DNA from: Minisyncoccota bacterium
Lineage (GTDB): Bacteria > Patescibacteriota > Minisyncoccia > Phycocordibacterales > VMEP01
Reading direction: 5' to 3'
DNA: 64,000 nucleotides
Assembly (NCBI GenBank): GCA_041661305.1
Contig: JBAZUR010000002.1
Location: forward strand, 10,621-74,620
Under the pieces are notes generated by a model, which was given only the letters and a program-made list of their open reading frames with translations, was not told the DNA's origin and did no database searches. The position numbers and the translations under genes are program-made. Below, in pieces: positions 1 through 30,504 of this stretch. Position 1 is the stretch's first letter; every line of letters begins with the position of its first letter.

Positions 1-474
1 AATGTTAATCCATTTTCCAGCTGTTTGATTGCGATTATTCAGGTTTTTATAGCAATCGGACTTTATAATGTTTTGGCGACAGGAATAGTCTTAGATGAAG
101 ACTCCCTTTATTCATTCGTTGTTTTTCCTCAGATAGTTAATTCTTTGTTTTTGGGAATAATTGATACACATACACCAAGCTACCTTTTAGCCTTTCTTGC
201 AGCAGTCTCACAATATTTTCTAGCCGCACTTTTACCAGCCCCACATAAAAAGGAAGGAAAAGAAGCCCCCACTTTTCAGGAGGATTTGGCTAGAAATATG
301 CATATGCAAATGAAATACGTTTTACCAGTTGTTATTCTTGTTATCGCAACAAGATTTCCAGCAGCAGTTGCTCTTTATTGGGTTGTAAGCAACCTCTTTT
401 CTATTGGACAAGAAATTGTTATAAGAAAAGGAATGGAAAAGTACGATGTGAAAAATCCACAAATTTCAGCATAA
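1..474 (+). CDS. yidC: Membrane protein insertase YidC, C-terminal part. The 5' end lies outside the window.
   Basis: The ORF runs to the window edge. The multi-TM C-terminus ends with the characteristic ...ALYWVVSNLFSIGQ motif, and the gene is followed by jag as in the usual yidC-jag pair. Confidence 0.7.
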   Translation, partial: NVNPFSSCLIAIIQVFIAIGLYNVLATGIVLDEDSLYSFVVFPQIVNSLFLGIIDTHTPSYLLAFLAAVSQYFLAALLPAPHKKEGKEAPTFQEDLARNMHMQMKYVLPVVILVIATRFPAAVALYWVVSNLFSIGQEIVIRKGMEKYDVKNPQISA

Positions 475-475
475 A

Positions 476-964
476 ATGAATACAGAAGAAATAAAAAAAA
501 TAATAGAGGAAACCCTTAAAAAACTCACGACTACTTTTGAGGAAGTTGAAATAAAAAAGGAAGATGATGGTTCTTATATTTTTTCAATTAAAACAAATGA
601 TGTTGATTTTCTTGTTGGTAAAGATGGTACTTCCCTCCTCTCTTTAAATCACCTCATCAAAAGAATGGTTGACCAAAGTTTAAGTAAGACAAAATCAGAC
701 GAACAACTCTCTTTTATTGTTGATGTAAACGGATACCAACAAAGAAAAATTGATGATTTAAAAAATAAAGCAAAAATGATGGTGGAAAGAGCGCGCTTTT
801 TTAAATCAAGTGTTGAGCTTGAGCCAATGTCGTCTTATGAACGAATGGTTGTTCATACCTTTCTAAAAACGTTACCAGATATCAAAACAGAATCTATTGG
901 TGTTGGTAGTGAACGAAGAGTTGTTGTTAAATACACAGAACCATCCAGTCTCGCCTCTCTTTAA
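476..964 (+). CDS. jag: Jag/KhpB-like RNA-binding protein with KH and R3H domains
   Basis: 162 aa, starting immediately after yidC. The C-terminal region carries an R3H-like motif (ERMVVHTFLK...GSERRVVV). Confidence 0.65.
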   Translation: MNTEEIKKIIEETLKKLTTTFEEVEIKKEDDGSYIFSIKTNDVDFLVGKDGTSLLSLNHLIKRMVDQSLSKTKSDEQLSFIVDVNGYQQRKIDDLKNKAKMMVERARFFKSSVELEPMSSYERMVVHTFLKTLPDIKTESIGVGSERRVVVKYTEPSSLASL

Positions 965-970: not shown

Positions 971-2218
971 CTAGAGAGACAAAAGCCAAAGAGAGTTATC
1001 TGTTTTGTTTATAAAAACAAATTTATCCCCATTTTGATTTATTTGTGGTGAGGTAACATCTATTTGTTCTCTTGAAATTTCTCGCAGGTTTGCTAGTTGG
1101 TCTGTTGCACCAGACTCAGTATCAATTTTCCAAACGGTATCAGAAAAACTGATCAATCCTTGGTACCACGAATCAGGGTAGCCACCAGGTACTCTTGGTG
1201 TAGTTTCTGGAACAGCACAATAAGTGCTTATGTTATTTGAAGACCAAACACATTTTTCAGAGAGGGTTGCTAAGCCAAGAGAATAGGTAGTTTTTGTTTT
1301 TTTGTTAAAAACAGATAAAGATAACCCACCTTCGTTATTTTCTGAAAAAACAGCACGATTTCCATCCGGGGAAAGTAAGGTGGTGAGCCCGTATTTTTTA
1401 CCAATAACTTTTATTAAAGCAGGGTTTTTTACTGTAATAGAGTAATTGAAACCAAAGACAGAAGAAGAAGGTTTTGTGTTAAGGAAAATAACATCACCTT
1501 CTACCCATTGAGGAAGCCACTCTGTGAAAGTAGACTGAAAGATTTGTGACTTTTTTGACCCATCAAAGAAAGAGATGCTTCCAACAGAAGAGTTACCATA
1601 ATTGATTAATGTAAATATTTTTAATTTATCTGGAGAAACAGCTATTTGGTTTATGTTTTCATCGATAAAAGAGCCAACAAGAATACCCTCATCAGAAGTT
1701 GTTGCGCTTGTTTGTATTTTTGCTGAATATGTTTGAATAATATTATCTTCTTCTTTTAGATAGCGGAGTAAAACACTTTCTCCTTTGTCGGAAAAAATAG
1801 CCTCGTGTATTTTTGGAATAGTTGTATTGGTTAAACGCTTACTTTCGAGGGAGGAAGTGTTTATTTCTTGAACGTGACCGTTCTCTTTTTCTACATAACG
1901 GACAATTGTTGAACTTGCTCTCTCAAAGACAATAAAACCAGCAGTCGGACGAGGCGATAATTTTAAAAGTTTCTGTTTTTTTAATTGATTAGTATTTGCC
2001 TCTCCTGTTTGTGTCCCCTCTCCATTGTTTGATACACCATCATTTGTACCACTACCTTTTTCTCTATTATCAAAAATACCAAACGGAGAAAAACTAGAAC
2101 CATTATCGCTTGTACCCAAAATGTTTGAACCACTTCTATTCAAGAAGAACCAACCTGTGCCAGCAAAGGCAACTAAAACAAGAGAAAGGATGATTGCTAG
2201 TGTGGTTTTTGTGGACAT
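971..2218 (-). CDS. Membrane-anchored secreted protein with PD40/TolB-like beta-propeller repeats
   Basis: N-terminal TM helix and a Gly/Ser/Asn-rich linker. The motif SPDG..vF recurs (SPDGNRAVF, SPDKLKIF, NGDKFVF). It is the last gene of the minus-strand cluster. Confidence 0.4.
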   Translation of the reverse strand: MSTKTTLAIILSLVLVAFAGTGWFFLNRSGSNILGTSDNGSSFSPFGIFDNREKGSGTNDGVSNNGEGTQTGEANTNQLKKQKLLKLSPRPTAGFIVFERASSTIVRYVEKENGHVQEINTSSLESKRLTNTTIPKIHEAIFSDKGESVLLRYLKEEDNIIQTYSAKIQTSATTSDEGILVGSFIDENINQIAVSPDKLKIFTLINYGNSSVGSISFFDGSKKSQIFQSTFTEWLPQWVEGDVIFLNTKPSSSVFGFNYSITVKNPALIKVIGKKYGLTTLLSPDGNRAVFSENNEGGLSLSVFNKKTKTTYSLGLATLSEKCVWSSNNISTYCAVPETTPRVPGGYPDSWYQGLISFSDTVWKIDTESGATDQLANLREISREQIDVTSPQINQNGDKFVFINKTDNSLWLLSL

Positions 2219-2226: not shown

Positions 2227-3141
2227 TTATGGTGTTGTTACGTGCCAGTGCTCAGAGTTTTCGTTGTAAAAACGAGCACCACCAAAAATACAGGTTTGAC
2301 CAATTGACGAACAATTATTTGGGTTTGTTCTTGTTCCGCTCGCTAGGCCAGTTTTAATTATATACTCAGTTATTTTCGGACCAGAGCTATTTTTACCAAT
2401 ATCGACTATCGGGCGGTTTTCCGCGTGTGTTGCATGTCTCCAAAACTCTGTTCCACCACTTACAACAACAACACAATCAGAACCACAAGCTTTTTTAAGT
2501 GTTCCTAAAAAAGCAATTGTGGAATCAGGGAGCAGTCCGACATTTGTACAGCTTTTTTGGCCATAAACAGTACAAGGGCTCGCATTTATTCCAACGTTAA
2601 GAGTTTTTAATCTATCTCTAACTCTTTGTTCGTCTTTTAGGATTGCGGCGATTCTATCTTTGATTGCTTGTGTAACTGTTGGGTCGCCTCCTATGACACC
2701 GGTAGTACTACGAGTGCCAGCACCAGAAGATACGCTAGGAGTAGTGCCAGTCATTGACGGCGCTGTTTTGGCGATATTTAGATTAAGGCTTACTAAATCA
2801 GGATTTATTGTATATAGGAAAATATAGATACCGAGAGCAAGGATAAGCCCCAAGATTGCTCCCTCAATTTTAGATTTGGCGTCCCCTATTTTAAAAGGAG
2901 ATTCGCTTGCCATATATTGAATTCCTCCGATAACTATTTGGATTACAGCAAGGCCAGCTGCAATACCAATGCCAATTTTAAAAATAAGATTAAGGTAATC
3001 AGAAAAGGATGTTTCGCTATTAATTACAGCAAATTGGTCATTATAAACTCCCGGTTCGAGTAATGTGTATTCTTGCGCGGAAGCAACCCCACAAAAAATA
3101 AAAAACGGAAGGATAGAGAGAAGTAAAAAGAATTTTTTCAT
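2227..3141 (-). CDS. T4SS-associated protein with a VirB2/TrbC-like two-TM hairpin and a C-terminal zinc-peptidase-like domain (VanY/M15 type, putative cell-wall hydrolase)
   Basis: Signal peptide, then two hydrophobic segments split by a short charged loop, which is the pilin-like topology. A Ser/Thr linker follows. The C-terminal domain has an H-x7-D spacing (HATHAENRPIVD) and a terminal SEHWH (ExxH-like) motif, plus 6 Cys. Confidence 0.4.
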   Translation of the reverse strand: MKKFFLLLSILPFFIFCGVASAQEYTLLEPGVYNDQFAVINSETSFSDYLNLIFKIGIGIAAGLAVIQIVIGGIQYMASESPFKIGDAKSKIEGAILGLILALGIYIFLYTINPDLVSLNLNIAKTAPSMTGTTPSVSSGAGTRSTTGVIGGDPTVTQAIKDRIAAILKDEQRVRDRLKTLNVGINASPCTVYGQKSCTNVGLLPDSTIAFLGTLKKACGSDCVVVVSGGTEFWRHATHAENRPIVDIGKNSSGPKITEYIIKTGLASGTRTNPNNCSSIGQTCIFGGARFYNENSEHWHVTTP

Positions 3142-3142: not shown

Positions 3143-4138
3143 CTAACGTCCTTTAAAGTTTAACATAATATTGCCGACCGCCGAGAGCATTATTTTAGAA
3201 GGATTTGTTACTAGAAGAGAGATGTCTGCAGACCCACTTGTGCCAGATTGCTGTCTTACAATAAGAACCCCGGGATTTAAGTTCTCTGCTTTTACTGGAT
3301 TACCGTTAAGTGACCAGCTGTATTTTATTTTACTACTTGTTTTGTTGTTTGGAGAGAAAAAATATGGCTCAGCTGCTATGGAAAGTTCTTCGTTTGAGAG
3401 AGGAAGTGAACCTGAAAGTGCTTTTCCATATAAAATACCTAAAATAGGATTCTTTTCATAAAATAAAATTTTAGGCTCTACTATTTGAATTACAACTTCT
3501 TCTCTCCCAACTTTAAAATCGGAAGTATTTCTTGCCTCGACTCCTATTTGCTCGCTTTTTTTAAGGTAATCATTTTTTAAAAAAAGCGTGGAAACACCCC
3601 TGCCGGAAAGTGAACCTAAAACTTCAGAATCACGGCGCCATTTGTAAGAAAGCTCACTTGTTTTATATGTACCACCATTACTTTTCCAAATATTAGGAAT
3701 AGCTGTTATTTTTATTGATGATTCCGATGTTGGGAGAGCTTTCCCTTTGTAAAAAGGTGGAGTGTAAACATCCGTTGCCTGCCAAAGTAGGTTGATTTCT
3801 GATGGGTTTACTACCAAAGTTCCTTGTGCGGAGGTATTTCCTAACGTAGCACTAGCTTTTATTGATATTGGTTCACCAACTTCCCCGACCTTAAAAGAAA
3901 CAGATTTTTGACCAACATTTGAAGAAATTTTTTTACCGCCTAAAGACCAGGTTATGTTTGCGAGGTCTAGATTAAAGGAAGAGCTTGAAACTGAGGCTGT
4001 TACCACGTCTTGTGGCTCTGGGATCTCTGGTGAGATTTGAATCAAAAGAGAGGAGGACTGGCTAAACGTTACTAAAGGAAATATTAAAAAACTTAACAAA
4101 AGTAAATTCTTAAAAATAATTTTTTTGTTAAATAACAT
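3143..4138 (-). CDS. Secreted beta-rich hypothetical protein
   Basis: Signal peptide (LLLLSFLIFPLVTFSQS). No recognisable motif. It overlaps its neighbour in the minus-strand operon. Confidence 0.3.
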   Translation of the reverse strand: MLFNKKIIFKNLLLLSFLIFPLVTFSQSSSLLIQISPEIPEPQDVVTASVSSSSFNLDLANITWSLGGKKISSNVGQKSVSFKVGEVGEPISIKASATLGNTSAQGTLVVNPSEINLLWQATDVYTPPFYKGKALPTSESSIKITAIPNIWKSNGGTYKTSELSYKWRRDSEVLGSLSGRGVSTLFLKNDYLKKSEQIGVEARNTSDFKVGREEVVIQIVEPKILFYEKNPILGILYGKALSGSLPLSNEELSIAAEPYFFSPNNKTSSKIKYSWSLNGNPVKAENLNPGVLIVRQQSGTSGSADISLLVTNPSKIMLSAVGNIMLNFKGR

Positions 4139-4547
4139 TTAATTCTTCTACTTTCGTAACTATTTTTTTCAAAAAGATGTGGTTTTCTATGGTGCGCAAA
4201 ACAACAAGACTTAAAGCTGTTGCCGGAATAATATTAACGAAAGGGATTACCTCTATTATAAACTGTCCTGCGAGAACAGCCAACTTCCTTCCAGCATATC
4301 TACCAGTAAAACTAATGCCGTTCATAAATAAATAAAAAAAGAGTGTTATGTTAAAAAAAAATGTAAAGAAAACAGACATAGCCGAGAGAATCATGGTGAG
4401 ATTAAGTAAATCTAAAAGATCTTTGATTAAAGCAAAACCAAGCATAAGCATAAAACCAAAGCCAGTTAACTTTCTACTTTTTGTTAAGCTCCCCTCTCTC
4501 AATAGCTCAACGTTTTGTTTATTTTCTAGTTTTTTTTCTTTATTCAC
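4128..4547 (-). CDS. Small polytopic membrane protein of the T4SS-like cluster
   Basis: 139 aa with 2-3 hydrophobic helices. It lies directly downstream of the VirB4 ATPase ORF. Confidence 0.3.
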   Translation of the reverse strand: MNKEKKLENKQNVELLREGSLTKSRKLTGFGFMLMLGFALIKDLLDLLNLTMILSAMSVFFTFFFNITLFFYLFMNGISFTGRYAGRKLAVLAGQFIIEVIPFVNIIPATALSLVVLRTIENHIFLKKIVTKVEELNVI

Positions 4548-4568: not shown

Positions 4569-6389
4569 TTACTCAGATTCGGCTGTAGCTAAGTCATTTT
4601 TGGCTTTTTTGATTGCTAGAACTTGCGATGGGTCCGAAGTTATTATCTGGTCTTCGGTGTACGAAGCAACAATTTTTAAAGCCACGTGCTTAAGGCCGGC
4701 AAAGAAGATTCCCTCTCCAACTCCCGATTCAAGAAGAAGATATTTTTCCTCGTCTGTTAAGTTGAAAGTTTTTTGAACCATATCAATAGAAGAAGGAGAC
4801 TGTTTTAAAAGAATTTGTATTGACGAGTTTGTAATAATAGGAAGGCCATATGGAGAATTAAGAAAGTCGCCGACATCTTGAGTAATTGTTGCAAGTCCCA
4901 AGTAATATTTACGGCCACGCTTAGCGATACTGAAAAGAAAAGAAGCTGTATCTTCTGATTTCATCATCCACCAAGCTTCGTCAACTACAAGGAGGCGTTT
5001 TTTAAGATTTTTACGAACAGCATTCCAGATATAGTGAGTAACAATGTACATTGCAACAGGTTTCAACTCATCCTCCATGTCACGCACAGAAAAAACAACG
5101 AATTTTTTGTTGATATCAACATTGGTTGGTTTGTTTATGAAACCAGACCAAGTTCCTTTTGTGTATTTAGATAACTTTTGAAGAAGATCTGCGCTACCGT
5201 CCATTCCAGAAAGGACCATTTCGAAGTCTGAAAGTAGTGGTGGTTCGATCGCAGAAAAGTCTGAATCAGCGGTAATGTCTTTGAGGTTATAAGTTTCCGT
5301 AATTGCGCGGTCGATAAGGGAATCTTCTCCCGGAGAAAGACCTCCGAGCATAATACGAAACAATCCGACGAGATTTACGATATTTGAACGCAAAACATCA
5401 GCAGCTGACTCATCTTCGCGAGGAACTGGAAGATCAAACGGGTTTATGTGGTGGTCTGAAGTAAGAGAAATATTAAAATAACGTCCACCTGTCGCTTCAG
5501 CCAAATATTCATATTCACGCTCTGGGTCGATAACGATAACCTCCGTATCAAACATAAGCGTGCGGATTATTTCAAGCTTGGTAGTGTAAGATTTTCCAGA
5601 ACCAGCCTTAGCAAAAATAATTGAGTTGTAGTTTTCAAGTGAATAACGATCAAAAAGAACAAGACTTGAATTGTGTCTATTTATTCCATATAAAATTCCG
5701 CGATCAGAAGTGAGGTCAAAAGAAACAAATGGGAAAAGAGAAGATAGTGGAGAAGAGTTTAATTTAGAATGGACACCTAGCTCATCTGACGCTATTGGAA
5801 TAACACTTTTAAATCCTTGTTCTTGTTGGAAAAGAGCTGGTTTAACATAAACCATCTTAGATTCAAGGATTGATTTTATTTCGGACTCTATTTTATCAAG
5901 TTCTGCCTCGGTTGTTCCGTATATCGTTAGATATAGACCGACATCAAATATTTTTTCTTGGGCTTGCTGAAGAGAGTCGCGAAGAGATTCTAGGTCTTGG
6001 TATGCAGTATCAAGCATAGGGTCGCGAACCATACCTTTCTCTTCGCGCATATGTATTTGGCTTTGAACCTCAGCAACTTTTTTCTGGAAAGTATGAAGAA
6101 TCTTGGCTGTTTCTATTGGGTGTATAAAAATTGAAACATCAAAAACCTTATCTAGGTTTATGATTGGAGAAAACCAGTTGTCAGCTAAAACTCTCGGATA
6201 AGAAATAACAAAAAAAGTACGCGCTATTTTGTCGCCGAGGTTTAGAGCCCTAGGCTCAATTTTTAAAGCCGAAGGGGCGATAATATCACGAAGCTCAAGT
6301 GTTGCTGCTTGATAGATTTCTTGTGGAAGAATCGGGGTAATTTCCTCCTCTTTTTTTTCATTTCCTGTTATGAAATCAAATATTCCCAT
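4569..6389 (-). CDS. virB4: VirB4/TrbE/CagE-family T4SS ATPase, ATPase portion (C-terminal two-thirds of VirB4)
   Basis: Walker A motif AKAGSGKSYTTK and Walker B motif LLVVDEAWWM. The region GLATITQDVGDF is also VirB4-like. Confidence 0.85.
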   Translation of the reverse strand: MGIFDFITGNEKKEEEITPILPQEIYQAATLELRDIIAPSALKIEPRALNLGDKIARTFFVISYPRVLADNWFSPIINLDKVFDVSIFIHPIETAKILHTFQKKVAEVQSQIHMREEKGMVRDPMLDTAYQDLESLRDSLQQAQEKIFDVGLYLTIYGTTEAELDKIESEIKSILESKMVYVKPALFQQEQGFKSVIPIASDELGVHSKLNSSPLSSLFPFVSFDLTSDRGILYGINRHNSSLVLFDRYSLENYNSIIFAKAGSGKSYTTKLEIIRTLMFDTEVIVIDPEREYEYLAEATGGRYFNISLTSDHHINPFDLPVPREDESAADVLRSNIVNLVGLFRIMLGGLSPGEDSLIDRAITETYNLKDITADSDFSAIEPPLLSDFEMVLSGMDGSADLLQKLSKYTKGTWSGFINKPTNVDINKKFVVFSVRDMEDELKPVAMYIVTHYIWNAVRKNLKKRLLVVDEAWWMMKSEDTASFLFSIAKRGRKYYLGLATITQDVGDFLNSPYGLPIITNSSIQILLKQSPSSIDMVQKTFNLTDEEKYLLLESGVGEGIFFAGLKHVALKIVASYTEDQIITSDPSQVLAIKKAKNDLATAESE

Positions 6390-6394
6390 GGTAT

Positions 6395-7057
6395 TTATTG
6401 ATTGAGCTTGATAGCTTTTTCTGTCTCTCCTGGATTAAAAATTTTATAAAAAACCTCGATAACCTCTTCGGTTCCAAGCTGGACAGCTCTAACTCCAAAA
6501 CGAGATAGCCCCTGAGCAACCACTGAGACACGCTGGTCAAGCTGTGAACGACTTTCTTCAAAAAGTTCTGTTTCAGCGATACGGGACTCCGCGGTTGGTT
6601 CTTTATTTCCCGTCATTCCTGGAATCGGAGGAAGTGAAAAACCACTACTACCCTTCCCTCCAATAGATGGGGCGCTATAAGGAACCACTATAAAAAAGTT
6701 TTTAGTCATAATGTTTCTTGTTTCAGCAAGGTTTTTTATAAAATCAATATATTCTCGAGTCTGTATTTTAAGAAGATCTTCTAATTGTTCTTTCATTCTG
6801 TCTTCAAGCATTGTTATGTATGGCTTTATGTCTAGCTTGCGAGATTGAATGAATATTTGAATTGAGAAATCCAATGAGTTTAAAAAACCTTGGAATTGTA
6901 AAATAGTAGCAGTCTGCTCGTCTTCTGATTTTAAAGCGAGATTTAAAGAAGAAGTCATGATTAGCGCCCTCAAAGAGCCGTCTTTTAAAACAACAACGCC
7001 ATCGCGTACTTCTTTAATAGGAACAAAATCTTGAGCTGCTTTAGATTGAATAGCCAT
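6395..7057 (-). CDS. virB4: VirB4 N-terminal domain encoded as a separate ORF (split VirB4)
   Basis: The stretch DFVPIKEVRDGVVVLKDGSLRALIM...EDEQTATILQFQGFLNSL matches the conserved VirB4/TraC N-terminus. It stops 5 nt before the ATPase ORF starts, and the two ORFs are in different frames. Confidence 0.55.
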   Translation of the reverse strand: MAIQSKAAQDFVPIKEVRDGVVVLKDGSLRALIMTSSLNLALKSEDEQTATILQFQGFLNSLDFSIQIFIQSRKLDIKPYITMLEDRMKEQLEDLLKIQTREYIDFIKNLAETRNIMTKNFFIVVPYSAPSIGGKGSSGFSLPPIPGMTGNKEPTAESRIAETELFEESRSQLDQRVSVVAQGLSRFGVRAVQLGTEEVIEVFYKIFNPGETEKAIKLNQ

Positions 7058-7155: not shown

Positions 7156-7578
7156 TCATTCTTCTTTGCTCGTGGTTAAAACATCAAGACCCCAAGAGAG
7201 ATCTTTTAGTTTACTATCAGAGAGGCGCGGAACCAAAGAATTGTCAGTGTCACCCTTCTTTGCTTTTTTTGTTATCTCCATTGGCCGATTTTCTTTTTTC
7301 CAAATATATAGTTTTTCTCCGAGGTAGTAGCGAAAAGCTGCCTCAACGCTGTAAATGAACGGTTTGTCATTTATTTTATAAAATGCAAAAGCAACTGCGA
7401 GGGCTACTATAGGAATCACAAAAAATAGAGTAATTACTAAAGGAAGAAAGCTGTCTAGTATTTTATACACAACAAAAGCCATTCCCGCTCCACCAGCTAG
7501 GTAAATAAATTGTTTAAAAGTAAATGGACCAAAAATCTTATCCTCTACTTCAATAAATTGCGGAACATGAAACTGCAT
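7156..7578 (-). CDS. VirB3-like / PrgI-family small T4SS membrane protein
   Basis: 140 aa. The N-terminus ...EDKIFGPFTFKQFIYLAGGAGMAF is followed by two TM helices, which is the PrgI/TcpE-like pattern. It sits immediately upstream of virB4. Confidence 0.5.
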   Translation of the reverse strand: MQFHVPQFIEVEDKIFGPFTFKQFIYLAGGAGMAFVVYKILDSFLPLVITLFFVIPIVALAVAFAFYKINDKPFIYSVEAAFRYYLGEKLYIWKKENRPMEITKKAKKGDTDNSLVPRLSDSKLKDLSWGLDVLTTSKEE

Positions 7579-8541: not shown

Positions 8542-10962
8542 TTACTTACCCTCTGTTTTTTTATTATCTTCTCTTGCTTTCATCCTTTCAAGACTTTCTA
8601 CAAATCTTTGGAGATTTCTTGCGTTATTTTTTGCTGTTTCTCTTTCAAATAGTAGTTTTGCGCGATCATTCTTATCTCCACGGTCGCCGAGTTCGTCGAG
8701 TTTCATTTGTATATTTATTGACTCTTTTGTAAATGAATCAATGGCTTCTTTCACAGATTGGTTGCTCCCCATCAAACTTTTTATCGTTCCTTCAAGTTTA
8801 GATATTTCTTGGTCAGATTTATATTTTGAGCCGATTTCTTTCTCTGCTTTTTTGGTTGCCCCGGCATTACCAAATTTTATTGCCTGTGGAATAATCTCCC
8901 CACCTTCAATATAGTTTTTATTTTTTAGTTGTTCAAAATATGATTTTTGGCGTTCTTGTGTTACCACCCTATTCTTTGCCTCTTCCGACGATTTAATTTC
9001 ACCCTCAATAATTGAAGACTTGTCGGTTTGCTTAAATTTCTCCAGCCTTAGAGCAAGTTGCTCCTTATCGTTTTTGCCGGCTTTTTCTGCGTCAGTTAAT
9101 TTAACATTATCGAGAATCTTTTTATCTGCAGCTTTTTTAGCCACCGCCTTTTCTTCCTCAGTTAACTTAACTGTTTTGGCTTCTAGTAGCTTTGCGATAT
9201 CAGCACGTTCTTTACCGCGTTCTTTTTCGGCACGGTCAAGGTCTCCGCGGAAACCATCCGTAAGATCTTTTGGTTTTTGTCCTAGGTCAACCTTGGCGCC
9301 AGTTGCCCCAGCAAGTTTAGAACCCAATCCTCCAATAAGTGGTGTTTCACCGGCGGCGCGAACATCAAAACTAGACTTAGCTACTCCTACGGTACTTTGT
9401 AGAGCTAGGCGAGCAAATCTATTATTTGAAGCCGCAGACTTAGCCCATTCTTGGTTGGCGACCCAAGAGGCCCCTGCTCCAACTGTTCGCCTAGCTATCA
9501 AACCGCCAGCTCCGCCAGCAAGTGCTCCTGCCCCGACAGACAGCATCCCAGAAATTTTTGATCCCGCTGATCCGCTTAGCTCTCGTGTGGTTTTAACTGC
9601 TGCGAGCAAAAGTCCTATCGCAATCAAAAAACTAAAGATTACACCAACGGTATTTACGTCTGGGGAAGTAAGCGCACTCGCCATGTTTGAACCAGATACA
9701 TTTTCTGTATATGTCGTAACAGTAGAACTTACACCTCCGCTTGCGGTTAACGCAGCGGCTAGATTTGTATTTTCTGTGTAGGTTGCAACGGTAGATTTCA
9801 TGCTTCCCGTGGTAGCTACAGAGGAAGCGCTATTTAATCCGTTATTTCCACCACCAAGAATTATTAGAATCATCCACATAAACATAAGGAAAACTGGAGC
9901 CACAAGAACTTGCTCCCAGAGTTGATCCCACCACATCTTGGAGTACTTGGCTGTTTTTGGGATAAGACCAGCTACGTAGGCAAATGGTGAAAGAGGAAGA
10001 AGAAGGATGAGGATTATTGCGCGCGACAAAAAGATAAACGCAACTGAAAGAAAAGAAAAAGCAGTAATAAGAATAAAAATCACACCCATTAACGAGATAG
10101 TTAATATTTGGAAAAAATCAACAGAGTTGGAGGCAAAAACCGATTGTATTTTTGTTAGTTGGAAAAACTTATCAGATATTCCCCCAGCGGAAAAGTTTCC
10201 AGTTTGAGAGGGGTCTATAATTCCTGAATAAAATTGAAAAGCTACAATGTTTGAGGTATCAATAATGACTTTAGTAAAAAAGAGGCTGAAGTTTATTAAA
10301 AGAGCGGCGATTATAATGCTTGGAATTAATTTTTTACCATCACCTATTTGAAGAATGTTTTGTATTGAAATCCAAAGGAGAGCAAAAATAAAAATAATAT
10401 TCGACATATCGCGAATAGTTCCCCAAGCAAGATTAATCCCAGGAGTTTTCTGTATAAATTCAGCCATGTTTAGGTTGAATTTAATTGATTGATTAAGTAA
10501 TACGCTGGCAAGGTCAAGAAACCAACTACTGAGCCATAGGGCGCTGTTTCCAAACCATACAGTTGTACATCTCATAGCGTTCCCTGTAGCTAAAGCGCTC
10601 CAAGTACCACAATCAAGTTTTACGTTTTCATTAGCAGTTCCGTCAAAAGCCGAGGCGGGTAAAGCTTTTGAAGTTTCTACTTGAATACAATTTAAGTATG
10701 CACCTGAATTCCCGTCTTTAAGATAAGCACAAGCTTGTTCTGGGTTTGCCGAAGAGCTTAGTGCGTCTGTTTGATTATCTCTGTTTTGAATATCTTCCTG
10801 GAGAATACAAGGTCCCCCATTTGGGTCTTCTACATAAGGAGCTTCACAGCTTTGCGCTTCCGCAACATTATTTCCAAGCAATGGTGGTAAAACAAAAAAC
10901 AAAAAAGCAAAAAATAATATTGCTGAGGAGTAGAATATTTTTTTTGAAAAAAAAGATTTCAT
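8542..10962 (-). CDS. VirB6/TrbL-like polytopic membrane protein with a long charged C-terminal tail (TcpH-like architecture)
   Basis: Signal peptide and a Cys-containing exo-domain, then at least 6 TM helices and a Gly-rich region. The C-terminal tail of ~300 aa is Lys/Glu-rich and coiled-coil. At 806 aa it matches the size of Gram-positive VirB6 analogues. Confidence 0.45.
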   Translation of the reverse strand: MKSFFSKKIFYSSAILFFAFLFFVLPPLLGNNVAEAQSCEAPYVEDPNGGPCILQEDIQNRDNQTDALSSSANPEQACAYLKDGNSGAYLNCIQVETSKALPASAFDGTANENVKLDCGTWSALATGNAMRCTTVWFGNSALWLSSWFLDLASVLLNQSIKFNLNMAEFIQKTPGINLAWGTIRDMSNIIFIFALLWISIQNILQIGDGKKLIPSIIIAALLINFSLFFTKVIIDTSNIVAFQFYSGIIDPSQTGNFSAGGISDKFFQLTKIQSVFASNSVDFFQILTISLMGVIFILITAFSFLSVAFIFLSRAIILILLLPLSPFAYVAGLIPKTAKYSKMWWDQLWEQVLVAPVFLMFMWMILIILGGGNNGLNSASSVATTGSMKSTVATYTENTNLAAALTASGGVSSTVTTYTENVSGSNMASALTSPDVNTVGVIFSFLIAIGLLLAAVKTTRELSGSAGSKISGMLSVGAGALAGGAGGLIARRTVGAGASWVANQEWAKSAASNNRFARLALQSTVGVAKSSFDVRAAGETPLIGGLGSKLAGATGAKVDLGQKPKDLTDGFRGDLDRAEKERGKERADIAKLLEAKTVKLTEEEKAVAKKAADKKILDNVKLTDAEKAGKNDKEQLALRLEKFKQTDKSSIIEGEIKSSEEAKNRVVTQERQKSYFEQLKNKNYIEGGEIIPQAIKFGNAGATKKAEKEIGSKYKSDQEISKLEGTIKSLMGSNQSVKEAIDSFTKESINIQMKLDELGDRGDKNDRAKLLFERETAKNNARNLQRFVESLERMKAREDNKKTEGK

Positions 10963-10965: not shown

Positions 10966-13206
10966 TTAATAGTATGTGTTTTGGTTTCTTCCTTCTCTCT
11001 CTAATCTTTCTTTTTCTAAAATTGCCTGGTGCTCTGTCTGACAATTACTAAAAGCACTCGAGGCGGTATCTCTAATTGCTCTTATTTCAGAAAACTGCGA
11101 TGCCGCGGTTTCGGCCATATCAGGAGTTGGAACTCCATCTGAGCCGGAAATTGCCACGAGTGAATATGAAGCTGTCTGGAAATCAGTTCTTCCAGAAGTG
11201 ATAGCTTCCTTTAGTGCTGCGAAAGGAATTATTTTTAAAGAGATGGCACCAATCTCTCTTTCTAGTTTGCTTATTAAATCATTGTAGTATGTTTGTTGAG
11301 CAAAAAGTGAAGGTGAACTCAATTGACTATCCAAAGTGCTTGGGCAATAAGTTGCTGGGCTAAAGGATATTAAGGCGCTAGTAGTTGAAGCAGCTTCATG
11401 CACAACATTTAGTGTTTCATTACGTATACCAAGGTATCCCGCAAAAGCATTAGTTGTGTTATCTATACTAGCGACAATGTCGTTGATTGAATTAATTTCT
11501 TGGGTTCGACTCGCTTGGTTATTGGCAAGATTATCGTCAGTGTAGGAAAAGAAAGAACTTTCGGCTAAAGACTGTGCTAACGCGCGGTCTTGTGGAGAAA
11601 CATCTTCGTTTGAGTTTGCGTCTATGTTTGAAACGTTTCTCGATGGAGCGGTTGCTGCGGCGCGAAGCCTCTCCTCTATTGTTGAGGCTGGTGTTGTTAT
11701 TTTGGTCTTACGACAAGCACCAGGGACGACATCAGCACCTGTATCCAAACACTCCTTTATTGGGGGGACTCCGTCTTTTGCCTCTATCTTTGCGGCTTCC
11801 TCGGCTTCTGAGAGAGAAGAACCCAAATCTTCGCTTACTCGTAGGTAGTTTGCTGCAACGTTATTTTGAGAAGCCAAAACAAAACATTTAATAGAAGAAC
11901 AAACCGAGGTGTCACCATTTCGGTATCTTGTGGCATTTGTTGCGCCAATAGCTTTTGCCAGCGGATCTTCGTATTTCGCTATTCTGCCTGCAGCTGTTTC
12001 TGATTGTTGTGAAGCGATAACTGCTTTTATGTTTTCTTCTCTATAAGGAGAATTAGTTTTAGATAAATCAGAGACAAAAATCCTTGTTTGGTTTTGTGCT
12101 TGTTTTGCAAGGTAGTCATTAAAGTTTGTTAGATACAAAGGGTTGCCATTATTCCCAGTGTTTAACCACTTCATTTCATTTTCTTGCATTTTGGCGATCG
12201 TAATACGTGAGCTTGTGTAAGCTATTCTGTCTAAACAAGTCTGTTTTGTTTTAAGAGTAGATGTATCTTGTTGCAAAGTGTTTATTTGTTTAACGATTGT
12301 TTGTGGGTCTGTTGGCACTGTTCCACCCCCGCCGAGCAAAGAAAGAACACTCCCTACTCCAGGAAGAGCAGACCCAGCTCCACCGAACACGCTCCCCAGC
12401 TCTCCCGCAGTGTATCCTGCAGACATTCCACCCAAAGTATTTCCAAGGCTAACAAGAGAGCCAGAGCCAATTTCTGCTCCAAGATTAACAAGCATGCTTC
12501 CAGTATTATTTACTACCCCAGATAGTAGGTCGCTAGATAAAACACTAGTTACTATTTTGTCAGCACCACCGACAACATTTTGAATTGCTCCGTTAATACC
12601 ACTATTAACACCTCCAATTTGACCGTTTATATTATTCAGTGCTTCGTTAATAACACCGTTTGCTTTATTTTCTAGTGCGGTACCAACTTGGCCAGCTATT
12701 TTTCCTGCCGTGTTTCCAATGACACCACCGCCCAAAGCTTCATTAACAGACCCAGAAGCTTTTGCTCCAAGGCCGTTTATCCCTGCACTACTTAAAAGTT
12801 GCTGTCCAAGAGAGGAAAGAGTACTACTTACAGCTCCTCCGACAGCGCTACACCCTGAATCGGCAAGGTTTTTGGCAAGAGCTTCATTTGCTGTGTTTAA
12901 GGAAGCCGTTTTTATTCCCGTGGATAGCGTAACGCAACTGTTTGATTCATCGTAAATACCAGATGGACACGATTGAGCCGAAGAGGCCTCTGTTGAAGGG
13001 ACATAAGCTCCGGTTGCAGGGTTGTAGTATGAATCTGTGTAATCCGAAGTTCGAACATTTTCGCCTGTTGCTGGATTATAATATTCGTTTGTTTGCGCTC
13101 TAGTTATGTTTGTAGTTGAAAAGAAAGAAGAAACAACAAACAAATAAATAAGAAATATTGAAATTGTTTTTTTAACCATATTCCTTTTAGCAGAAAATAG
13201 AACCAT
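10966..13206 (-). CDS. Large secreted/surface protein with YYNPATG repeats and a long Gly/Ser/Ala/Asn-rich low-complexity region
   Basis: N-terminal TM/signal segment. The motif Y(Y)NPATG(E/A)(N/Y)V occurs three times. About 250 aa are of GxxG/SxxG type. The C-terminal domain is globular. Confidence 0.35.
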   Translation of the reverse strand: MVLFSAKRNMVKKTISIFLIYLFVVSSFFSTTNITRAQTNEYYNPATGENVRTSDYTDSYYNPATGAYVPSTEASSAQSCPSGIYDESNSCVTLSTGIKTASLNTANEALAKNLADSGCSAVGGAVSSTLSSLGQQLLSSAGINGLGAKASGSVNEALGGGVIGNTAGKIAGQVGTALENKANGVINEALNNINGQIGGVNSGINGAIQNVVGGADKIVTSVLSSDLLSGVVNNTGSMLVNLGAEIGSGSLVSLGNTLGGMSAGYTAGELGSVFGGAGSALPGVGSVLSLLGGGGTVPTDPQTIVKQINTLQQDTSTLKTKQTCLDRIAYTSSRITIAKMQENEMKWLNTGNNGNPLYLTNFNDYLAKQAQNQTRIFVSDLSKTNSPYREENIKAVIASQQSETAAGRIAKYEDPLAKAIGATNATRYRNGDTSVCSSIKCFVLASQNNVAANYLRVSEDLGSSLSEAEEAAKIEAKDGVPPIKECLDTGADVVPGACRKTKITTPASTIEERLRAAATAPSRNVSNIDANSNEDVSPQDRALAQSLAESSFFSYTDDNLANNQASRTQEINSINDIVASIDNTTNAFAGYLGIRNETLNVVHEAASTTSALISFSPATYCPSTLDSQLSSPSLFAQQTYYNDLISKLEREIGAISLKIIPFAALKEAITSGRTDFQTASYSLVAISGSDGVPTPDMAETAASQFSEIRAIRDTASSAFSNCQTEHQAILEKERLEREGRNQNTYY

Positions 13207-13211: not shown

Positions 13212-14156
13212 TTACGGCTGTGTATTATTAAGTATAACACCACTTTTAAAATATATCTCTAGTGTTTTAGCGGTTTCTACCAATTTATTGCTATAGGAAA
13301 GATATTGATTAAGACCGTTCATCGAAAGAAGAGGGTCGGAAAAAATTTGCCCGACAATTTTCAGAGAATCAGCCGTTCCTCGGTAGTTATTTATCAGATC
13401 AAGGTGAAGCTCTGCTATTTTTTCTGGAACCGCGATTTCCACGGTGTCCTTGGCTATGTTTGTGTAGGCGTTTATGTAAGGAACTAGTTTTGTTTGCAAT
13501 GTTTGGTCGCTAGTTTCAAGAGAGGTAGAGATTACTGTGATTTCTTGTCCTAGGTTATATTTCGAATATTTTTGGATTACCGTTCCAAGATTTTTGCTGT
13601 AAGCTAAAATTTCTGCATCACTGGCGTTTTTTATAACAGTGAGGTCGTTTATTGTGTATAGGGGGCGTATCTCCTCTTGTTTTATGTTGGAATATATAAT
13701 TTTTGCGGTTTCTCGTACTGTTTCTGGGTCAAATTTTCCAGCGTTTTTAAGAGCTGAAGCTGCCACAAAAAACTGCTGACCGAACTGATCTGTCGCAGAG
13801 GTTGTAATCTCTCCACTCGTGGTATTTTTAGCCACATTTTGTTTATGAACTTCAGTTCCGTCTAATATTCCGTTGTTATTTGAGTCTTTATTGTTCGGAT
13901 CTGTACCATAAAGTGCTTCCTCCCAGTCTTTTAGTCCATCCTTATCACTGTCTTTGTTTATTAAATCTGCGACGGAGTCGTTTACCCCACCATTAATAAC
14001 CAAAACACCTTGTTCTTCTTGTTTTGTTTCTGTAATTAGTGGATTAGAAACTCCTTTGTTGGAAAAAACAGATAAACTTATAATTGTTAACCCTAAAATA
14101 GATGCGGCAACTAATTTTTTGTTCTTAAGAAAGTTTCGCACGGATTGAGAATTCAT
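13212..14156 (-). CDS. Secreted protein with thrombospondin type-3-like Ca-binding repeats; first gene of the minus-strand cluster
   Basis: Signal/TM segment. DSDKDGLKDWEEALYGTDPNNKDSNNNGILDGTE fits the D-x-D-x-D-G-x-x-D pattern. Confidence 0.4.
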   Translation of the reverse strand: MNSQSVRNFLKNKKLVAASILGLTIISLSVFSNKGVSNPLITETKQEEQGVLVINGGVNDSVADLINKDSDKDGLKDWEEALYGTDPNNKDSNNNGILDGTEVHKQNVAKNTTSGEITTSATDQFGQQFFVAASALKNAGKFDPETVRETAKIIYSNIKQEEIRPLYTINDLTVIKNASDAEILAYSKNLGTVIQKYSKYNLGQEITVISTSLETSDQTLQTKLVPYINAYTNIAKDTVEIAVPEKIAELHLDLINNYRGTADSLKIVGQIFSDPLLSMNGLNQYLSYSNKLVETAKTLEIYFKSGVILNNTQP

Positions 14157-17812: not shown

Positions 17813-18832
17813 TTGTTGTTTATTGGTGTTTTATTGGTTATCTCCTCTCCTTCCACAGCTTCTGCGGGAGTCTTTTCTAAAATAAACGACCTTTTTTCTA
17901 AAAATGATTCTGAGCAGAGCAAAATAAGTAATTCTCAAAACATGGATATCTTAGAGGCTGTGACCGGTCCTGTTGGTCAAAGTTTACCAAGTGGTGGTGG
18001 CGATATTACTATTGTTGGAGGGATGGCTCTTCTTCCAGACGCTGGTCCTTCCGGAACACAGGTTGAGGTAAACGAAAAACCAACCCCTGCTTTTGGGCAG
18101 GTCAGTACATATACGGTTCGCGCGGGAGATACCCTCTCAAGTATTGCTAAAATGTTTGATGTTAGTGTTGGGACAGTTTTAAGCGCAAACGATTTAAAAA
18201 GAGGTGATGCTTTAGTTGTCGGACAGAAACTTATAATTTTGCCTGTATCGGGTGTTCAGTACACGATTAGTAAAGGAGATACGATCTCTTCTATTTCAAA
18301 GAAATATAAAGTAGATGTTGGTGAAATTATCGGGTTCAATGGTTTTTCTTCGGAGAGTGACGTCCTTCCTATTGGGGAATCAATAATCATTCCTTTCGCC
18401 GAAACAGAACAAAAGAGTACAACCATTGTTCCATCCAAGAAAATTGTTAACAAAGCACACGGCACTGGTGGGCCTGATTACACTGGGTACTTCATACGCC
18501 CAGTCTTAGAAGAGCTTGGTAGAAAGTCCCAGGGCTTACATGGATACAACGGTGTTGATATCGCAGCCAAAAAAGGAACTCCAATAATCGCCGCAGCCGC
18601 AGGTGAAGTTATTGTTGCAAGAAGTGGTGGGTGGAATGGTGGCTATGGATCGTATGTTGTTATTGCACACGGTAACGGAACACAAACTCTTTATGGCCAC
18701 ATGAGTTCAGTTGCTGTGGAGGAAGGATGGCATGTAAGCAAGGGTCAAACTATTGGGCAAGTTGGTTCAACCGGGCGCTCGACAGGATCACATCTTCATT
18801 TTGAGATTCGTGGTGCGAAGAACCCATTTTAA
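17813..18832 (+). CDS. Secreted LysM-domain peptidoglycan endopeptidase (peptidase M23)
   Basis: Signal peptide, two LysM repeats (YTVRAGDTLSSIAKMF..., YTISKGDTISSISKKY...) and a C-terminal M23 core (YGHMSS...GSTGRSTGSHLHFEIR). The ribosome-binding site AAGAGG precedes a TTG start. Confidence 0.85.
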   Translation: MLFIGVLLVISSPSTASAGVFSKINDLFSKNDSEQSKISNSQNMDILEAVTGPVGQSLPSGGGDITIVGGMALLPDAGPSGTQVEVNEKPTPAFGQVSTYTVRAGDTLSSIAKMFDVSVGTVLSANDLKRGDALVVGQKLIILPVSGVQYTISKGDTISSISKKYKVDVGEIIGFNGFSSESDVLPIGESIIIPFAETEQKSTTIVPSKKIVNKAHGTGGPDYTGYFIRPVLEELGRKSQGLHGYNGVDIAAKKGTPIIAAAAGEVIVARSGGWNGGYGSYVVIAHGNGTQTLYGHMSSVAVEEGWHVSKGQTIGQVGSTGRSTGSHLHFEIRGAKNPF

Positions 18833-25586: not shown

Positions 25587-26513
25587 ATGACTCAAGATTT
25601 AAAGAGCTTAAAACAACAATTTCTCGAATATATAGAAATAGAACGCGGGAGAAGCTTGAAAACAGTACGTAATTACGATGCATATTTAGAGCGTTTTCTT
25701 GTTCAAACAAACGCAAAACACCCCAAAGATATAACCGACGACTCTGTTCGTGAATTTCGTCTATGGCTTAATAGACAAGAAGGTCGGCGCGAGCGCGGAA
25801 TGAGTGCTGGAACTTTAAAAAAGAAGACACAGAACTATTATTTGATTGCGTTACGAATTTTTCTTAAGTATTTAATGAAAAGAGGAATCGAGGCGATGCC
25901 ACCAGACCGTATTGAATTGGCAAAGGTATCAGAACGCTCGCTTGACCTTATTTCTCTTGATGAATTAGAGAGATTACTTAAAGCCCCTAATGGCGATGAT
26001 TTAAAAAGTTTGCGTGATAAAGCAATTTTAGAACTACTTTTTTCTACAGGACTTCGTGTTTCTGAGCTTTGCTCTCTTCCCCGTGATATTGATTTACGTA
26101 AAGATGAATTTTCTGTTAGGGGGAAAGGTGAAAAAGTCCGCGTTGTTTTTCTTTCGGATTCGGCAAAGGAGGCGATTAAAAAATACTTAGCTAAGCGTCC
26201 GGATATGGAAGACGTCCTTTTTGTTGGCACTGGAAGTATTGGCAAGAAAAAAGGAGAAATAACACATCTCACAACTCGTTCCGTGGAAAGAATTGTCGCG
26301 CAATATGCAATTAAGGCGGGTATCTCAAAAAAAGTAACCCCTCACGTTATTCGCCACTCATTCGCTACAGATTTACTGGGTAACGGGGCAGATATTCGCT
26401 CTGTTCAAATGATGCTCGGCCATGCGAGTATTTCCACTACTCAAATCTATACCCACGTGACAGATAAAGCTCTTAGGGAGATACATAAAAAATTCCACAG
26501 CGGTGGAAAGTAA
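25587..26513 (+). CDS. xerC: Tyrosine recombinase of the XerC/XerD family
   Basis: 308 aa with a core-binding domain and a C-terminal catalytic region (RHSFATDLLGNGADIRSVQMMLGHASISTTQIYTHV) that carries the R..H..Y residues. Confidence 0.85.
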   Translation: MTQDLKSLKQQFLEYIEIERGRSLKTVRNYDAYLERFLVQTNAKHPKDITDDSVREFRLWLNRQEGRRERGMSAGTLKKKTQNYYLIALRIFLKYLMKRGIEAMPPDRIELAKVSERSLDLISLDELERLLKAPNGDDLKSLRDKAILELLFSTGLRVSELCSLPRDIDLRKDEFSVRGKGEKVRVVFLSDSAKEAIKKYLAKRPDMEDVLFVGTGSIGKKKGEITHLTTRSVERIVAQYAIKAGISKKVTPHVIRHSFATDLLGNGADIRSVQMMLGHASISTTQIYTHVTDKALREIHKKFHSGGK

Positions 26514-29223: not shown

Positions 29224-29295
29224 GCCCCCGTAGTGAAATGGATATCACGACAGTCTTCGAAACTGTTATTCCAGGTTCGAATCCTGGCGAGGGCA
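29224..29295 (+). tRNA. tRNA-Arg (anticodon TCG)
   Basis: Cloverleaf: acceptor GCCCCCG/CGAGGGC with one C-A mismatch at 5-68, D arm GTGA..TCAC, anticodon arm ACAGT-CTTCGAA-ACTGT, T arm CCAGG-TTCGAAT-CCTGG. No CCA is encoded. A promoter-like TTGATA-16-TATGAT lies at 29174-29201. Confidence 0.6.
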
Positions 29296-29482
29296 CACGA
29301 AGTGTGCCTGAAGCAGTGAGACGCCTGCGCGTCTCACGTCAGGATTCGAAAGCCGGAATATGTTTTTGTAATCAAAAACATTGAGGCGGGGTTGCAGGTT
29401 CTTAGTACGTGAAGAATGTACACATTTGAACGTGCTTAGAAACCTGTGACCGAATCCCAGTAGAAAAATATCCGTGACCTAA
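29296..29482 (+). repeat. tRNA-trailer module, copy 1 (after tRNA-Arg)
   Basis: Two hairpins, then CAGGATTCGAA (antisense of the tRNA-Arg T-loop/stem), then AAGCCGGA...GAGGCGGGGT, a variable hairpin, ...TGTGACCGAATCC and ATATCCGTGACC. It shares its core with copies 2 and 3. Confidence 0.45.
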
Positions 29483-29551
29483 TCTTTTATTGACGTAACC
29501 TCTATATTATTTGAACTTATTTAAAACTCTGTTAAAATACACCGATAAATT

Positions 29552-29622
29552 GCGGGTATGGTTTAGTGGTAGAACACGTCCTTGCCAAGGATGAGACGGG
29601 GTTTCGATTACCCCTACCCGCA
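29552..29622 (+). tRNA. tRNA-Gly (anticodon GCC)
   Basis: Acceptor GCGGGTA/TACCCGC, anticodon loop TTGCCAA, T arm GGGGT-TTCGATT-ACCCC. No CCA is encoded. A promoter-like TTGAAC-16-TAAAAT lies at 29508-29535. Confidence 0.85.
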
Positions 29623-29672
29623 CAAAGCGTTAAGAAAACATGCTAGGAATAGCATGTTTTCTTAACGCTTTG
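29623..29672. repeat. Perfect 23-bp inverted repeat (hairpin) immediately 3' of tRNA-Gly(GCC)
   Basis: CAAAGCGTTAAGAAAACATGCTA-GGAA-TAGCATGTTTTCTTAACGCTTTG. No T-run follows. Confidence 0.7.
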
Positions 29673-30400: not shown

Positions 30401-30504
30401 TTTTTTAATTTTTATGATAGGATTGGTGGGTTGTCGTGTTTTATAAGCGTTTGTTTTAATGGCAGGTGGAAGGGAATACGTCTGCGTGGGGTCAAAAAAT
30501 GTTT

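Follow-up and report, generated by a model that had tools for sequence, protein, structure and literature searches.

A 304-amino-acid (aa) protein encoded in a type IV secretion system (T4SS) cluster of a Minisyncoccota bacterium joins the only pilin homologue of that cluster to a C-terminal, enzyme-like domain (the C-domain), and this fused domain probably serves the secretion machine in cutting a way through the cell wall. The gene was found in a 64-kb stretch of contig JBAZUR010000002.1, the whole of which is called the window in this study. The fusion of pilin and C-domain is obligate and is the rule in this lineage. Judged by sequence, the N-terminal half represents a pilin module of VirB2 type, an assignment that is solid at the family level, and the C-domain is most likely LAS-like (hedgehog/MepA-like), with its fold and activity predicted; it is not filed here as an M15 member. 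The gene is read as the sole VirB2-type pilin homologue of a chromosomal, oriC-adjacent T4SS of Paceibacteria (very small, uncultured members of the candidate phyla radiation, CPR), and its product as a pilin-anchored, LAS-like wall hydrolase that does the job of VirB1, a reading for which we consider the chances of being right or wrong about equal. No T4SS other than that of Patescibacteria is known to be indispensable to the cell that carries it, and, unusually, this one combines a Gram-positive-type machine with VirB2-like pilins (PMC12102498, PMC12857230, PMC10633639). Since most Patescibacteria with VirB2 homologues lack VirB1 (PMC12102498), the way in which this machine crosses the wall is an open question (PMC12102498, PMC12857230, PMC10633639).

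The original prediction had described the N-terminus as a conjugative pilin precursor with a signal peptide, a hydrophobic helix, the loop SESPFKIGDAKSKIEG and a second hydrophobic helix, and both hydropathy and structure prediction agree with this topology. Based on a 150-sequence alignment, AlphaFold2 (AF2) gives a two-helix hairpin with a predicted local distance difference test (pLDDT) score >90; a single-sequence AF2 model of the whole protein (pLDDT 44.7) was not used. An acidic stretch is evident from hydropathy and composition at residues 23-48, before the hairpin, and the family consensus at the end of helix 2 is ..ILxTINPxL. The VirB2/TrbC pilin identity that had been proposed is also supported by profiles and by the VirB4/PrgI/TrsD cluster around the gene. 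T4SS_pilin (PF18895) matches the query at E 3.6e-5 (24.2 bits, profile positions 4-66 of 71), which is 2.4 bits below the 26.6-bit cut-off, and it matches 95 of 150 relatives (best E 6.8e-11) and is precomputed for many relatives in the databases, while TrbC/VirB2 (PF04956) matches 12 of the 150 and the NCBIfam Mbov_0395 pilin-like model matches the query at E 1e-3. Foldseek returned a Pyrobaculum conjugative pilin (8dft_A, E 2.3, TMt 0.40), a match to be read with the reservation that helical hairpins resemble many unrelated proteins. With a hidden Markov model derived from the pilins of the family, no second pilin-like open reading frame (ORF) was detected in the window or in four related 20-kb loci, and no stand-alone copy of the C-domain was present in the window or the related loci. 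Because many relatives match PF18895 and some match TrbC, the hairpin is predicted and no other pilin-like ORF is found, the protein is taken to be the only pilin homologue of its cluster and not the generic membrane anchor that the original prediction had named as an alternative.

Past the hairpin, the Ser/Thr-rich linker and Cys-rich C-domain that had been noted beforehand are both present (Table 1), with six Cys at positions 190, 198, 219, 223, 277 and 284. The H-x7-D spacing and the terminal E-H-W-H, which had first suggested a zinc peptidase, correspond to H239-x7-D247 and to E297-H298-W299-H300, the latter lying four residues short of the C-terminus. The His and Asp residues of both motifs are conserved in 150 homologues, although E297 of the quoted motif is not, and the conserved Glu is instead E294. 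Across these 150 homologues (22-65% identity), the residues that are invariant or nearly so are R175, C190, C198, C219, C223, the GGT of GGTE, E232, H236, H239, D247, E294, H298 and H300; among the Cys, the first three are invariant and C223 is nearly so. The spacer between His and Asp is 7 residues long family-wide (H239...D247; consensus HGPGxxxVD), and 148 of the 150 keep H298-W-H300, which lies on the last predicted strand. The AF2 model of the C-domain, built from the same alignment, consists of a helix (158-180), a strand (183-185), a helix (206-219), two strands (225-229 and 245-249), a helix (255-264) and three strands (283-286, 289-292 and 298-302). The predicted order of elements is thus helix, strand, His loop, strand with Asp, helix, strand, strand and strand with HxH, which we take to be the order of the LAS core. 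Foldseek was run with the full-length model, and among the 50 PDB matches listed the only one over the C-domain was Sonic hedgehog (7rhq_C, 113 columns).

The seven invariant polar residues of the C-domain spell EHHDEHH, in the same order as the heptad of the hedgehog N-domain (ShhN). The putative catalytic motif of ShhN comprises E127, H135, H141, D148, E177, H181 and H183 (PMC4102407), with zinc bound by H141, D148 and H183 and E177 acting as the general base (PMC4102407, PMC6027127). When the family alignment was compared with ShhN using hhalign (the ShhN sequence used agrees with PDB entry 6e1h), the helix before the motif aligned, TE-x-W fell on TEGW, H239 on H141 and D247 on D148, and at a permissive threshold E294 fell on E177, H298 on H181 and H300 on H183. 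Identical catalytic residues of ShhN (E127, H141, D148, E177, H181 and H183) therefore lie under six of the seven invariant residues, a result equalled by 1 of 250 composition-preserving shuffles, and the elements from the helix before motif 1 to the HxH strand align with ShhN in agreeing order. In addition, five of the seven have residues of E. coli MepA (M74) beneath them in hhalign (H110, H113, D120, H209 and H211), which was equalled by 1 of 200 shuffles. The proposed zinc peptidase is thus upheld at the level of the motif, with EHHDEHH in register with both ShhN and MepA, but not as membership of a known family, as no M15, VanY or hedgehog model is matched and hhalign probabilities are <=2%. 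The nearest resemblance is to hedgehog/M15A and MepA (M74) and not to VanY, as had been suggested.

Several results weigh against reading the C-domain as a LAS-like wall hydrolase. In Pfam, no M15, VanY or HH_signal model was matched by the C-domain, and no family was found in more than one of the 63 members searched (E<=10); Peptidase_M15_3, which ShhN matches at 7e-5, was matched by none of these 63 at the same threshold. No match to the C-domain was found among PDB sequences with either phmmer or the profile, and a profile search of 5.8 billion proteins (E<=10) provided no bridge to annotated families and gave only 73 members of the family itself. The hhalign probabilities of 0.4-1.8% (P 0.03-0.17) are not significant, the raw score of the ShhN alignment was reached by 11 of 200 shuffles, and the residue-matching shuffle tests were devised after the alignment had been seen. 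The match to hedgehog 7rhq_C is weak (E 0.5, TM 0.30, root-mean-square deviation 5.5 A), and there were no M15 peptidase structures among the 50 PDB matches listed by Foldseek. The His-to-Asp spacer is one residue beyond the canonical H-x(3-6)-D, the zinc-ligand motif of Hh/DD-peptidases being H-X6-D (PMC6027127). No in-register hhalign alignment was obtained with DdpX (VanX-type), MepK, the ST79 endolysin or the phage Peptidase_M15_3, for which the reference alignment held 111 sequences; the MepK reference contained only relatives of 87-100% identity. Small reference profiles of this kind are weak in hhalign, where MepK and ShhN, a true LAS pair, reach a probability of only 0.2%. The peptidase activity of ShhN, the prototype of the heptad, is itself still debated, and the M23+LysM hydrolase encoded at 17813-18832 could supply the wall cutting for the T4SS instead. 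Given the non-significant scores, the x7 spacer and the lack of an M15 match, the C-domain is called LAS-like and not M15.

Other searches and candidates bore on the C-domain as well. It had no match in NCBIfam or PHROGs, and nothing was found for it in the viral library of Foldseek. The top ranks of the Foldseek search, histidine kinases and small terminases, were dismissed as spurious, having been matched through the helical hairpin with deviations >20 A. By eye, a CHAP or NlpC/P60 domain (from 'GQxxCT') was rejected, the Cys not being at the N-terminus of a helix in the model and the invariant set being His/Asp/Glu, and size or motif order was wrong for a NodB deacetylase, a metallophosphatase (GHxH), a cupin and an HNH nuclease.

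An exhaustive profile search with the C-domain yielded 809 representatives of clusters at 50% identity at E<=1e-3 and 214 at E<=1e-10, most of them 265-310 aa long with the domain at the C-terminus. The survey of the fusion in related genomes that had been proposed leaves little room for exceptions: the hairpin precedes the C-domain in 194 of 202 family proteins, the remaining 8 being N-terminally truncated fragments of 140-206 aa, and in 197 of the 202 the protein ends <=15 aa past the C-domain. The C-domain was never seen on its own among these 202 sampled proteins, and the fusion is syntenic in five other lineages. The gap between pilin and domain is 5-34 aa long, of low complexity and variable length, with no conserved cleavage motif in the linker. 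Labels given by NCBI to relatives are Parcubacteria, Pacebacteria, Patescibacteria or Minisyncoccota, and family proteins are labelled 'pilin' or 'hypothetical'; a protein identical to the query (P0171) is named 'MAG: pilin [Candidatus Paceibacterota bacterium]'. The architecture had been called non-standard, which is accurate for Pfam and the literature searched; however, it is not rare, being the rule in this lineage, and NCBI already calls the protein a pilin. Some members are considerably longer. N-terminal extensions of 170-530 aa before the hairpin occur in P0006 (677 aa), P0092 and P0145 (791 aa), and P0096 and P0053 (530-590 aa), while in P0041, from the 530-590-aa group, the extra length lies between hairpin and C-domain; the extension of P0006 resembles repeated Ig-like modules. 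Such extensions indicate that the pilin modules can be embedded in much larger surface proteins.

Four relatives (P0054, P0062, P0083 and P0102) contain an N-terminal extension, T4SS_pilin, the C-domain and an SLT lytic transglycosylase domain (SLT E 1e-7 to 1e-12). The locus of P0102 reads PrgI, TraC-like, VirB4, a 317-aa gene, P0102, a 407-aa gene, yidC-rnpA and dnaA, and since P0102 occupies exactly the same slot of the cluster, it is regarded as an orthologue with an added canonical VirB1-type domain. As with the architecture, its conservation, the synteny of the locus and the motif correspondence, these SLT-bearing orthologues are a direct observation. Hydrolases of Gram-positive T4SS (VirB1 analogues) typically pair SLT with a peptidase (PMC12102498), and neither SLT nor CHAP domains were found in the 304-aa query with a Pfam scan. 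The query gene itself is inside the T4SS cluster, the topology predicted for its C-domain is outward, and hydrolase activity is likewise predicted. The idea of local peptidoglycan remodelling, put forward in the original prediction, therefore gains support from the orthologues that add an SLT domain, with the activity of the C-domain still a prediction.

In the proposed mechanism, export by Sec and removal of the signal peptide would leave the hairpin in the membrane with its loop on the cytoplasmic side, and a flexible linker of approximately 35 residues would hold the 154-aa domain outside the membrane. The C-domain would belong to the LAS-type zinc hydrolases, as a very divergent protein of the hedgehog/D,D-peptidase/MepA kind, in which H239, D247 and H300 may bind zinc, E294 may activate a water molecule, and E232, H236 and H298 may shape the active site; disulfides or a Cys4 site could stiffen the domain. 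Tethered by its pilin module to the VirB4/PrgI/VirB6-like machine, the hydrolase would act locally on peptidoglycan, cleaving its peptide stems or cross-links, so that the channel or pilus could cross the wall of the producing cell, a job done elsewhere by VirB1, TraG or PrgK. Zinc binding, fold, substrate and any polymerisation of the protein are the parts of this scheme that we infer.

Several other explanations for the fusion need to be considered. One that we regard as unlikely is a modular, enzyme-decorated pilus, in which a polymerising VirB2-type pilin displays the C-domain along or at the tip of a filament, where it would act on the surface of a partner or host, by wall digestion or adhesion, and not on the wall of the producing cell. 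The protein is the only pilin homologue in the cluster, and the pilin C-terminus faces the pilus exterior in the structures of the F- and T-pilus, so a linker-borne domain is topologically possible on a filament. However, we know of no VirB2-type pilin with a large C-terminal module that polymerises, and a 17-kDa domain on every subunit would be expected to crowd the surface of the filament. Patescibacteria T4SS are thought to be able to build pili, pilins are essential in S. epibionticum (PMC10633639, PMC12857230), and modular pilins are already established among type IV pili (PMC8179133), but the SLT-bearing orthologues of 800 aa resemble anchored hydrolases more than filament subunits. It is quite unlikely in our judgement that the system forms a 'catalytic pilus', a VirB2-type filament in which an active hedgehog-like zinc peptidase sits on every subunit, or on a subset at the tip, and digests a partner's wall or surface layer at contact. 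If true, this would be the first enzyme-bearing conjugative-type pilin, and it would give the hedgehog EHHDEHH centre a clear enzymatic job in a bacterial setting.

The remaining explanations concern the nature of the C-domain. The likeness to LAS proteins may be coincidental, and the domain may have a new fold or belong to another enzyme class (e.g., a nuclease or another metallohydrolase) with a similar order of His, Asp and Glu. Consistent with this, every profile and fold statistic is below significance, the spacer is x7, and DdpX, MepK and the phage M15_3 proteins align out of register; yet two unrelated LAS proteins, ShhN and MepA, are in register on known ligands with <=0.5% of shuffles equal or better, the order of secondary structure agrees, hedgehog is the only fold match to the C-domain among the 50 listed, and the C-domain partners with SLT, so we consider coincidence improbable. 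A non-catalytic domain that binds metal for structure or partner recognition, a role also argued for in hedgehog signalling, as part of an adhesin or sensor attached to the T4SS, appears very unlikely. Although the same heptad occurs in ShhN, which is mainly a ligand (PMC6027127, PMC4102407), and no enzymatic family is detectable by profiles, such strict invariance of the general-base-like E294 and the second-shell His, in 150 sequences that share approximately 30% identity, is what active enzymes typically show, ShhN is the exception among proteins with a centre of this kind, the others being enzymes (PMC4102407), and the SLT fusion in orthologues points to wall chemistry. Only a slight chance is given to a self-processing pro-pilin, a purely analogical proposal in which the C-domain, either a maturation peptidase working in cis or a removable pro-domain, would be cut off within the linker to leave a short mature pilin, comparable to the C-terminal trimming of TrbC. 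The C-domain never occurs without the pilin among the 202 sampled proteins, a disordered linker follows the conserved TINP, and ShhN has a 'cannibalistic', self-degrading peptidase activity (PMC4102407). In contrast, the linker is low-complexity and variable without a conserved cleavage motif, and the extra SLT domain of the orthologues would be left unexplained.

Table 1. Pilin-fusion gene, its parts and neighbouring genes of the T4SS operon, with positions in the window
Feature	Position	Strand	Residues or length	Basis and remarks
Pilin + C-terminal domain gene	2227..3141	(-)	304 aa	ORF list; ATG start, stop codon 2227-2229
Signal peptide MKKFFLLLSILPFFIFCGVASA	3076..3141	(-)	residues 1-22	Hydropathy and AXA-type end; ends ..GVASA, followed by QE; predicted cleavage site
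PF18895 T4SS_pilin match	2821..3009	(-)	residues 45-107	Profile match
Transmembrane helix 1	2908..2997	(-)	residues 49-78	Hydropathy; AF2 helix 46-78, pLDDT >90
Loop SESPFKIGDAKSKIEG with 3 Lys	2860..2907	(-)	residues 79-94	Sequence; cytoplasmic side predicted from signal peptide and two helices
Transmembrane helix 2, conserved TINP at end	2803..2859	(-)	residues 95-113	Hydropathy; AF2 helix 82-112
Flexible linker, 54% S/T/G/P	2692..2802	(-)	residues 114-150	Composition; AF2 pLDDT <50 at residues 129-147
C-terminal extracytoplasmic domain, LAS/hedgehog-like (predicted)	2230..2691	(-)	residues 151-304 (154 aa)	AF2 pLDDT mostly >90; 809 homologous clusters
Cys cluster C190...C198...C219...C223	2473..2574	(-)		Conservation; putative disulfides or structural metal site
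Motif 1 GGTEFWRHATHAENRPIVD: E232, H236, H239, D247	2401..2457	(-)		Invariant in 148-150/150; H239 and D247 putative zinc ligands
Motif 2 ENSEHWH: E294, H298, H300	2242..2262	(-)		Invariant in 147-148/150; E294 putative general base, H300 putative third zinc ligand; last beta strand
Secreted protein, next downstream in operon	971..2218	(-)	415 aa	ORF; without Pfam match
Secreted protein, next upstream	3143..4138	(-)	331 aa	Weak PKD-like matches; synteny conserved
Membrane protein, no known family	4128..4547	(-)	139 aa	129-187-aa counterparts in related clusters
VirB4-type ATPase, P-loop part	4569..6389	(-)	606 aa	PF19044 TraG P-loop E 3e-26
TrsD/TraC-like protein, VirB4 N-terminal part as separate ORF	6395..7057	(-)	220 aa	NCBIfam TrsD 7e-9, VirB4_plasma 1.6e-11
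PrgI (VirB3-like)	7156..7578	(-)		PF12666 E 1.5e-11
Polytopic membrane protein, slot expected for VirB6-like protein	8542..10962	(-)	806 aa	ORF; no Pfam/NCBIfam match

The pilin-fusion gene is the last but one in a minus-strand T4SS operon that encodes, in order of transcription, a 746-aa secreted protein, an 806-aa polytopic membrane protein, a 244-aa protein, PrgI, the TrsD/TraC-like protein, VirB4, a 139-aa membrane protein, a 331-aa secreted protein, the pilin fusion and a 415-aa secreted protein. The stop of the preceding gene ends 1 nt before the ATG of the fusion gene, the following gene begins 8 nt past its stop, and these short gaps indicate an operon arrangement with translational coupling to the neighbours; AAAGGA is found approximately 8-13 nt 5' of the ATG. 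The 415-aa gene has counterparts of 402-415 aa in the same slot in four of five other lineages, the slot being missing in locus L200, and the 331-aa gene likewise mostly holds its position, its slot being missing in locus L199; the relatives in which the two positions are mostly kept stand at approximately 30% identity. With their positions kept in this way, the two flanking secreted proteins probably belong to the extracellular side of the machine. On contigs with an identical pilin-fusion gene, PF26593 (TraC-like) is matched for the TrsD/TraC-like gene, and the split of VirB4 into two ORFs (4569-7057 (-)) is common to all related loci. In the 806-aa protein, the N-terminal part contains Cys and the C-terminus forms a long tail rich in Lys and Glu; its counterparts in related clusters have 703-802 aa. 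A 253-aa ORF rich in Ser, Ala, Pro and Arg that runs antisense within the gene for the 806-aa protein (9020-9781 (+)) is almost certainly a shadow ORF. Two secreted proteins are encoded at the head of the operon, one (746 aa, 10966-13206 (-)) with long Gly/Ser/Asn-rich stretches and no family, and the other (314 aa, 13212-14156 (-)) with a weak match to bacterial TSP3 repeats.

The T4SS cluster is bounded by yidC and jag at the start of the window (1-964 (+)), and on longer contigs with an identical gene it adjoins yidC-yidD-rnpA-rpmH and then dnaA-dnaN (L119, 12213-17038), which places it next to the replication origin, in agreement with a published observation on Patescibacteria. In the five other lineages the recurring order is PrgI, TraC-like, VirB4, one or two small genes, the pilin fusion, usually a gene of approximately 400 aa (absent in L200), yidC-rnpA-(rpmH) and dnaA-dnaN, and identity to the query over the C-domain is 30-39% in the three for which a value was measured. 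The cluster corresponds to the Patescibacteria T4SS described by Quinonero-Coronel et al. 2025 (PMC12102498). Elsewhere in the window, which has a GC content of approximately 38%, the housekeeping genes include YidC, Jag, KsgA, a UvrD-type helicase, PNPase, NusA and trigger factor. A protein with Peptidase_M23 (LAS-class) and two LysM domains is encoded at 17813-18832 (+), approximately 4 kb beyond the T4SS cluster. A cluster of type IV pilus/type II secretion system (T2SS) type at 41192-45695 (+) contains a PilB-like ATPase (T2SSE, E 3e-127) and a PilC-like platform protein (T2SSF), and three ORFs of 160-171 aa after the PilC-like gene may be type IV pilins; together with the T4SS cluster, this means that both filament systems are present in the genome. 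Additionally, a tyrosine recombinase (XerC/D-like or integrase) is encoded at 25587-26513 (+), at a distance of a few kb from four scattered tRNA genes (Arg, Gly, Pro and Gly; 29224-32241), and the GC skew shows a spike of 0.238 at 30-32 kb, which may mark an integration hotspot or may be an effect of the tRNA and trypsin-like protease genes.

Pilins, T4SS wall hydrolases and LAS-type centres are each known as kinds of parts, and what is new here is the obligate fusion and a domain family outside the databases. Neither the Patescibacteria T4SS papers nor text searches revealed a VirB2-type pilin described as joined to an enzyme-like domain. The conserved fusion of the only pilin to an enzyme-like domain constitutes a testable candidate for the missing VirB1 function, and with it comes the question of whether these 'pilins' build filaments at all or serve as anchors for surface enzymes. 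In addition, the 809 clusters (at 50% identity) of the domain family are outside every database model searched, and the signature of the hedgehog/LAS active site would be extended to a new, very divergent bacterial lineage.

Compared to VirB2/TrbC and PF18895 pilins, the query shares the signal peptide, the two hydrophobic helices, the short basic loop, the profile match and the VirB4/PrgI/TrsD neighbours. Known VirB2/TrbC-type pilins are small (approximately 70-130 aa) and end soon after helix 2, whereas the query continues into a linker and a conserved domain of 154 aa. With TraG of pIP501 and PrgK of pCF10 it has in common that it is membrane-anchored, extracytoplasmic and encoded in a T4SS cluster. 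PrgK carries a LytM domain, which is of LAS class. These VirB1 analogues consist of a peptidase module with or without SLT (PMC12102498), and orthologues of the query likewise carry SLT; unlike TraG and PrgK, the query is anchored by a pilin hairpin and not by a single transmembrane helix, its peptidase-like module is neither CHAP nor M23, and it is without SLT. The hedgehog N-domain and the bacterial Hh/DD-peptidases (M15A; PF01085, PF08291) share with the C-domain EHHDEHH, HxH on the last strand, TE-x-W before the His loop and the order of helices and strands. In contrast to hedgehog, only the equivalent of E127 (E232) is kept of the calcium-site residues E90, E91, D96, E127, D130 and D132, the four invariant Cys and the long N-terminal helix (158-180) are additional, the spacer is 7 and not 6, and no profile or fold score is significant. 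In MepA, which is also extracytoplasmic, H110-A-S-H113-x6-D120 and H209-M-H211 correspond to H236-A-T-H239-x7-D247 and H298-W-H300 of the query, but MepA (274 aa) is soluble in the periplasm and has other surroundings, its spacing is one residue off, and the hhalign P is 0.17. The closest parallel in concept is provided by modular type IV pilins such as S. sanguinis PilB, in which a pilin module is likewise combined with a functional C-terminal module (PMC8179133); the pilin class and machine are unrelated, and the modules known there are adhesive, whereas that of the query is enzyme-like.

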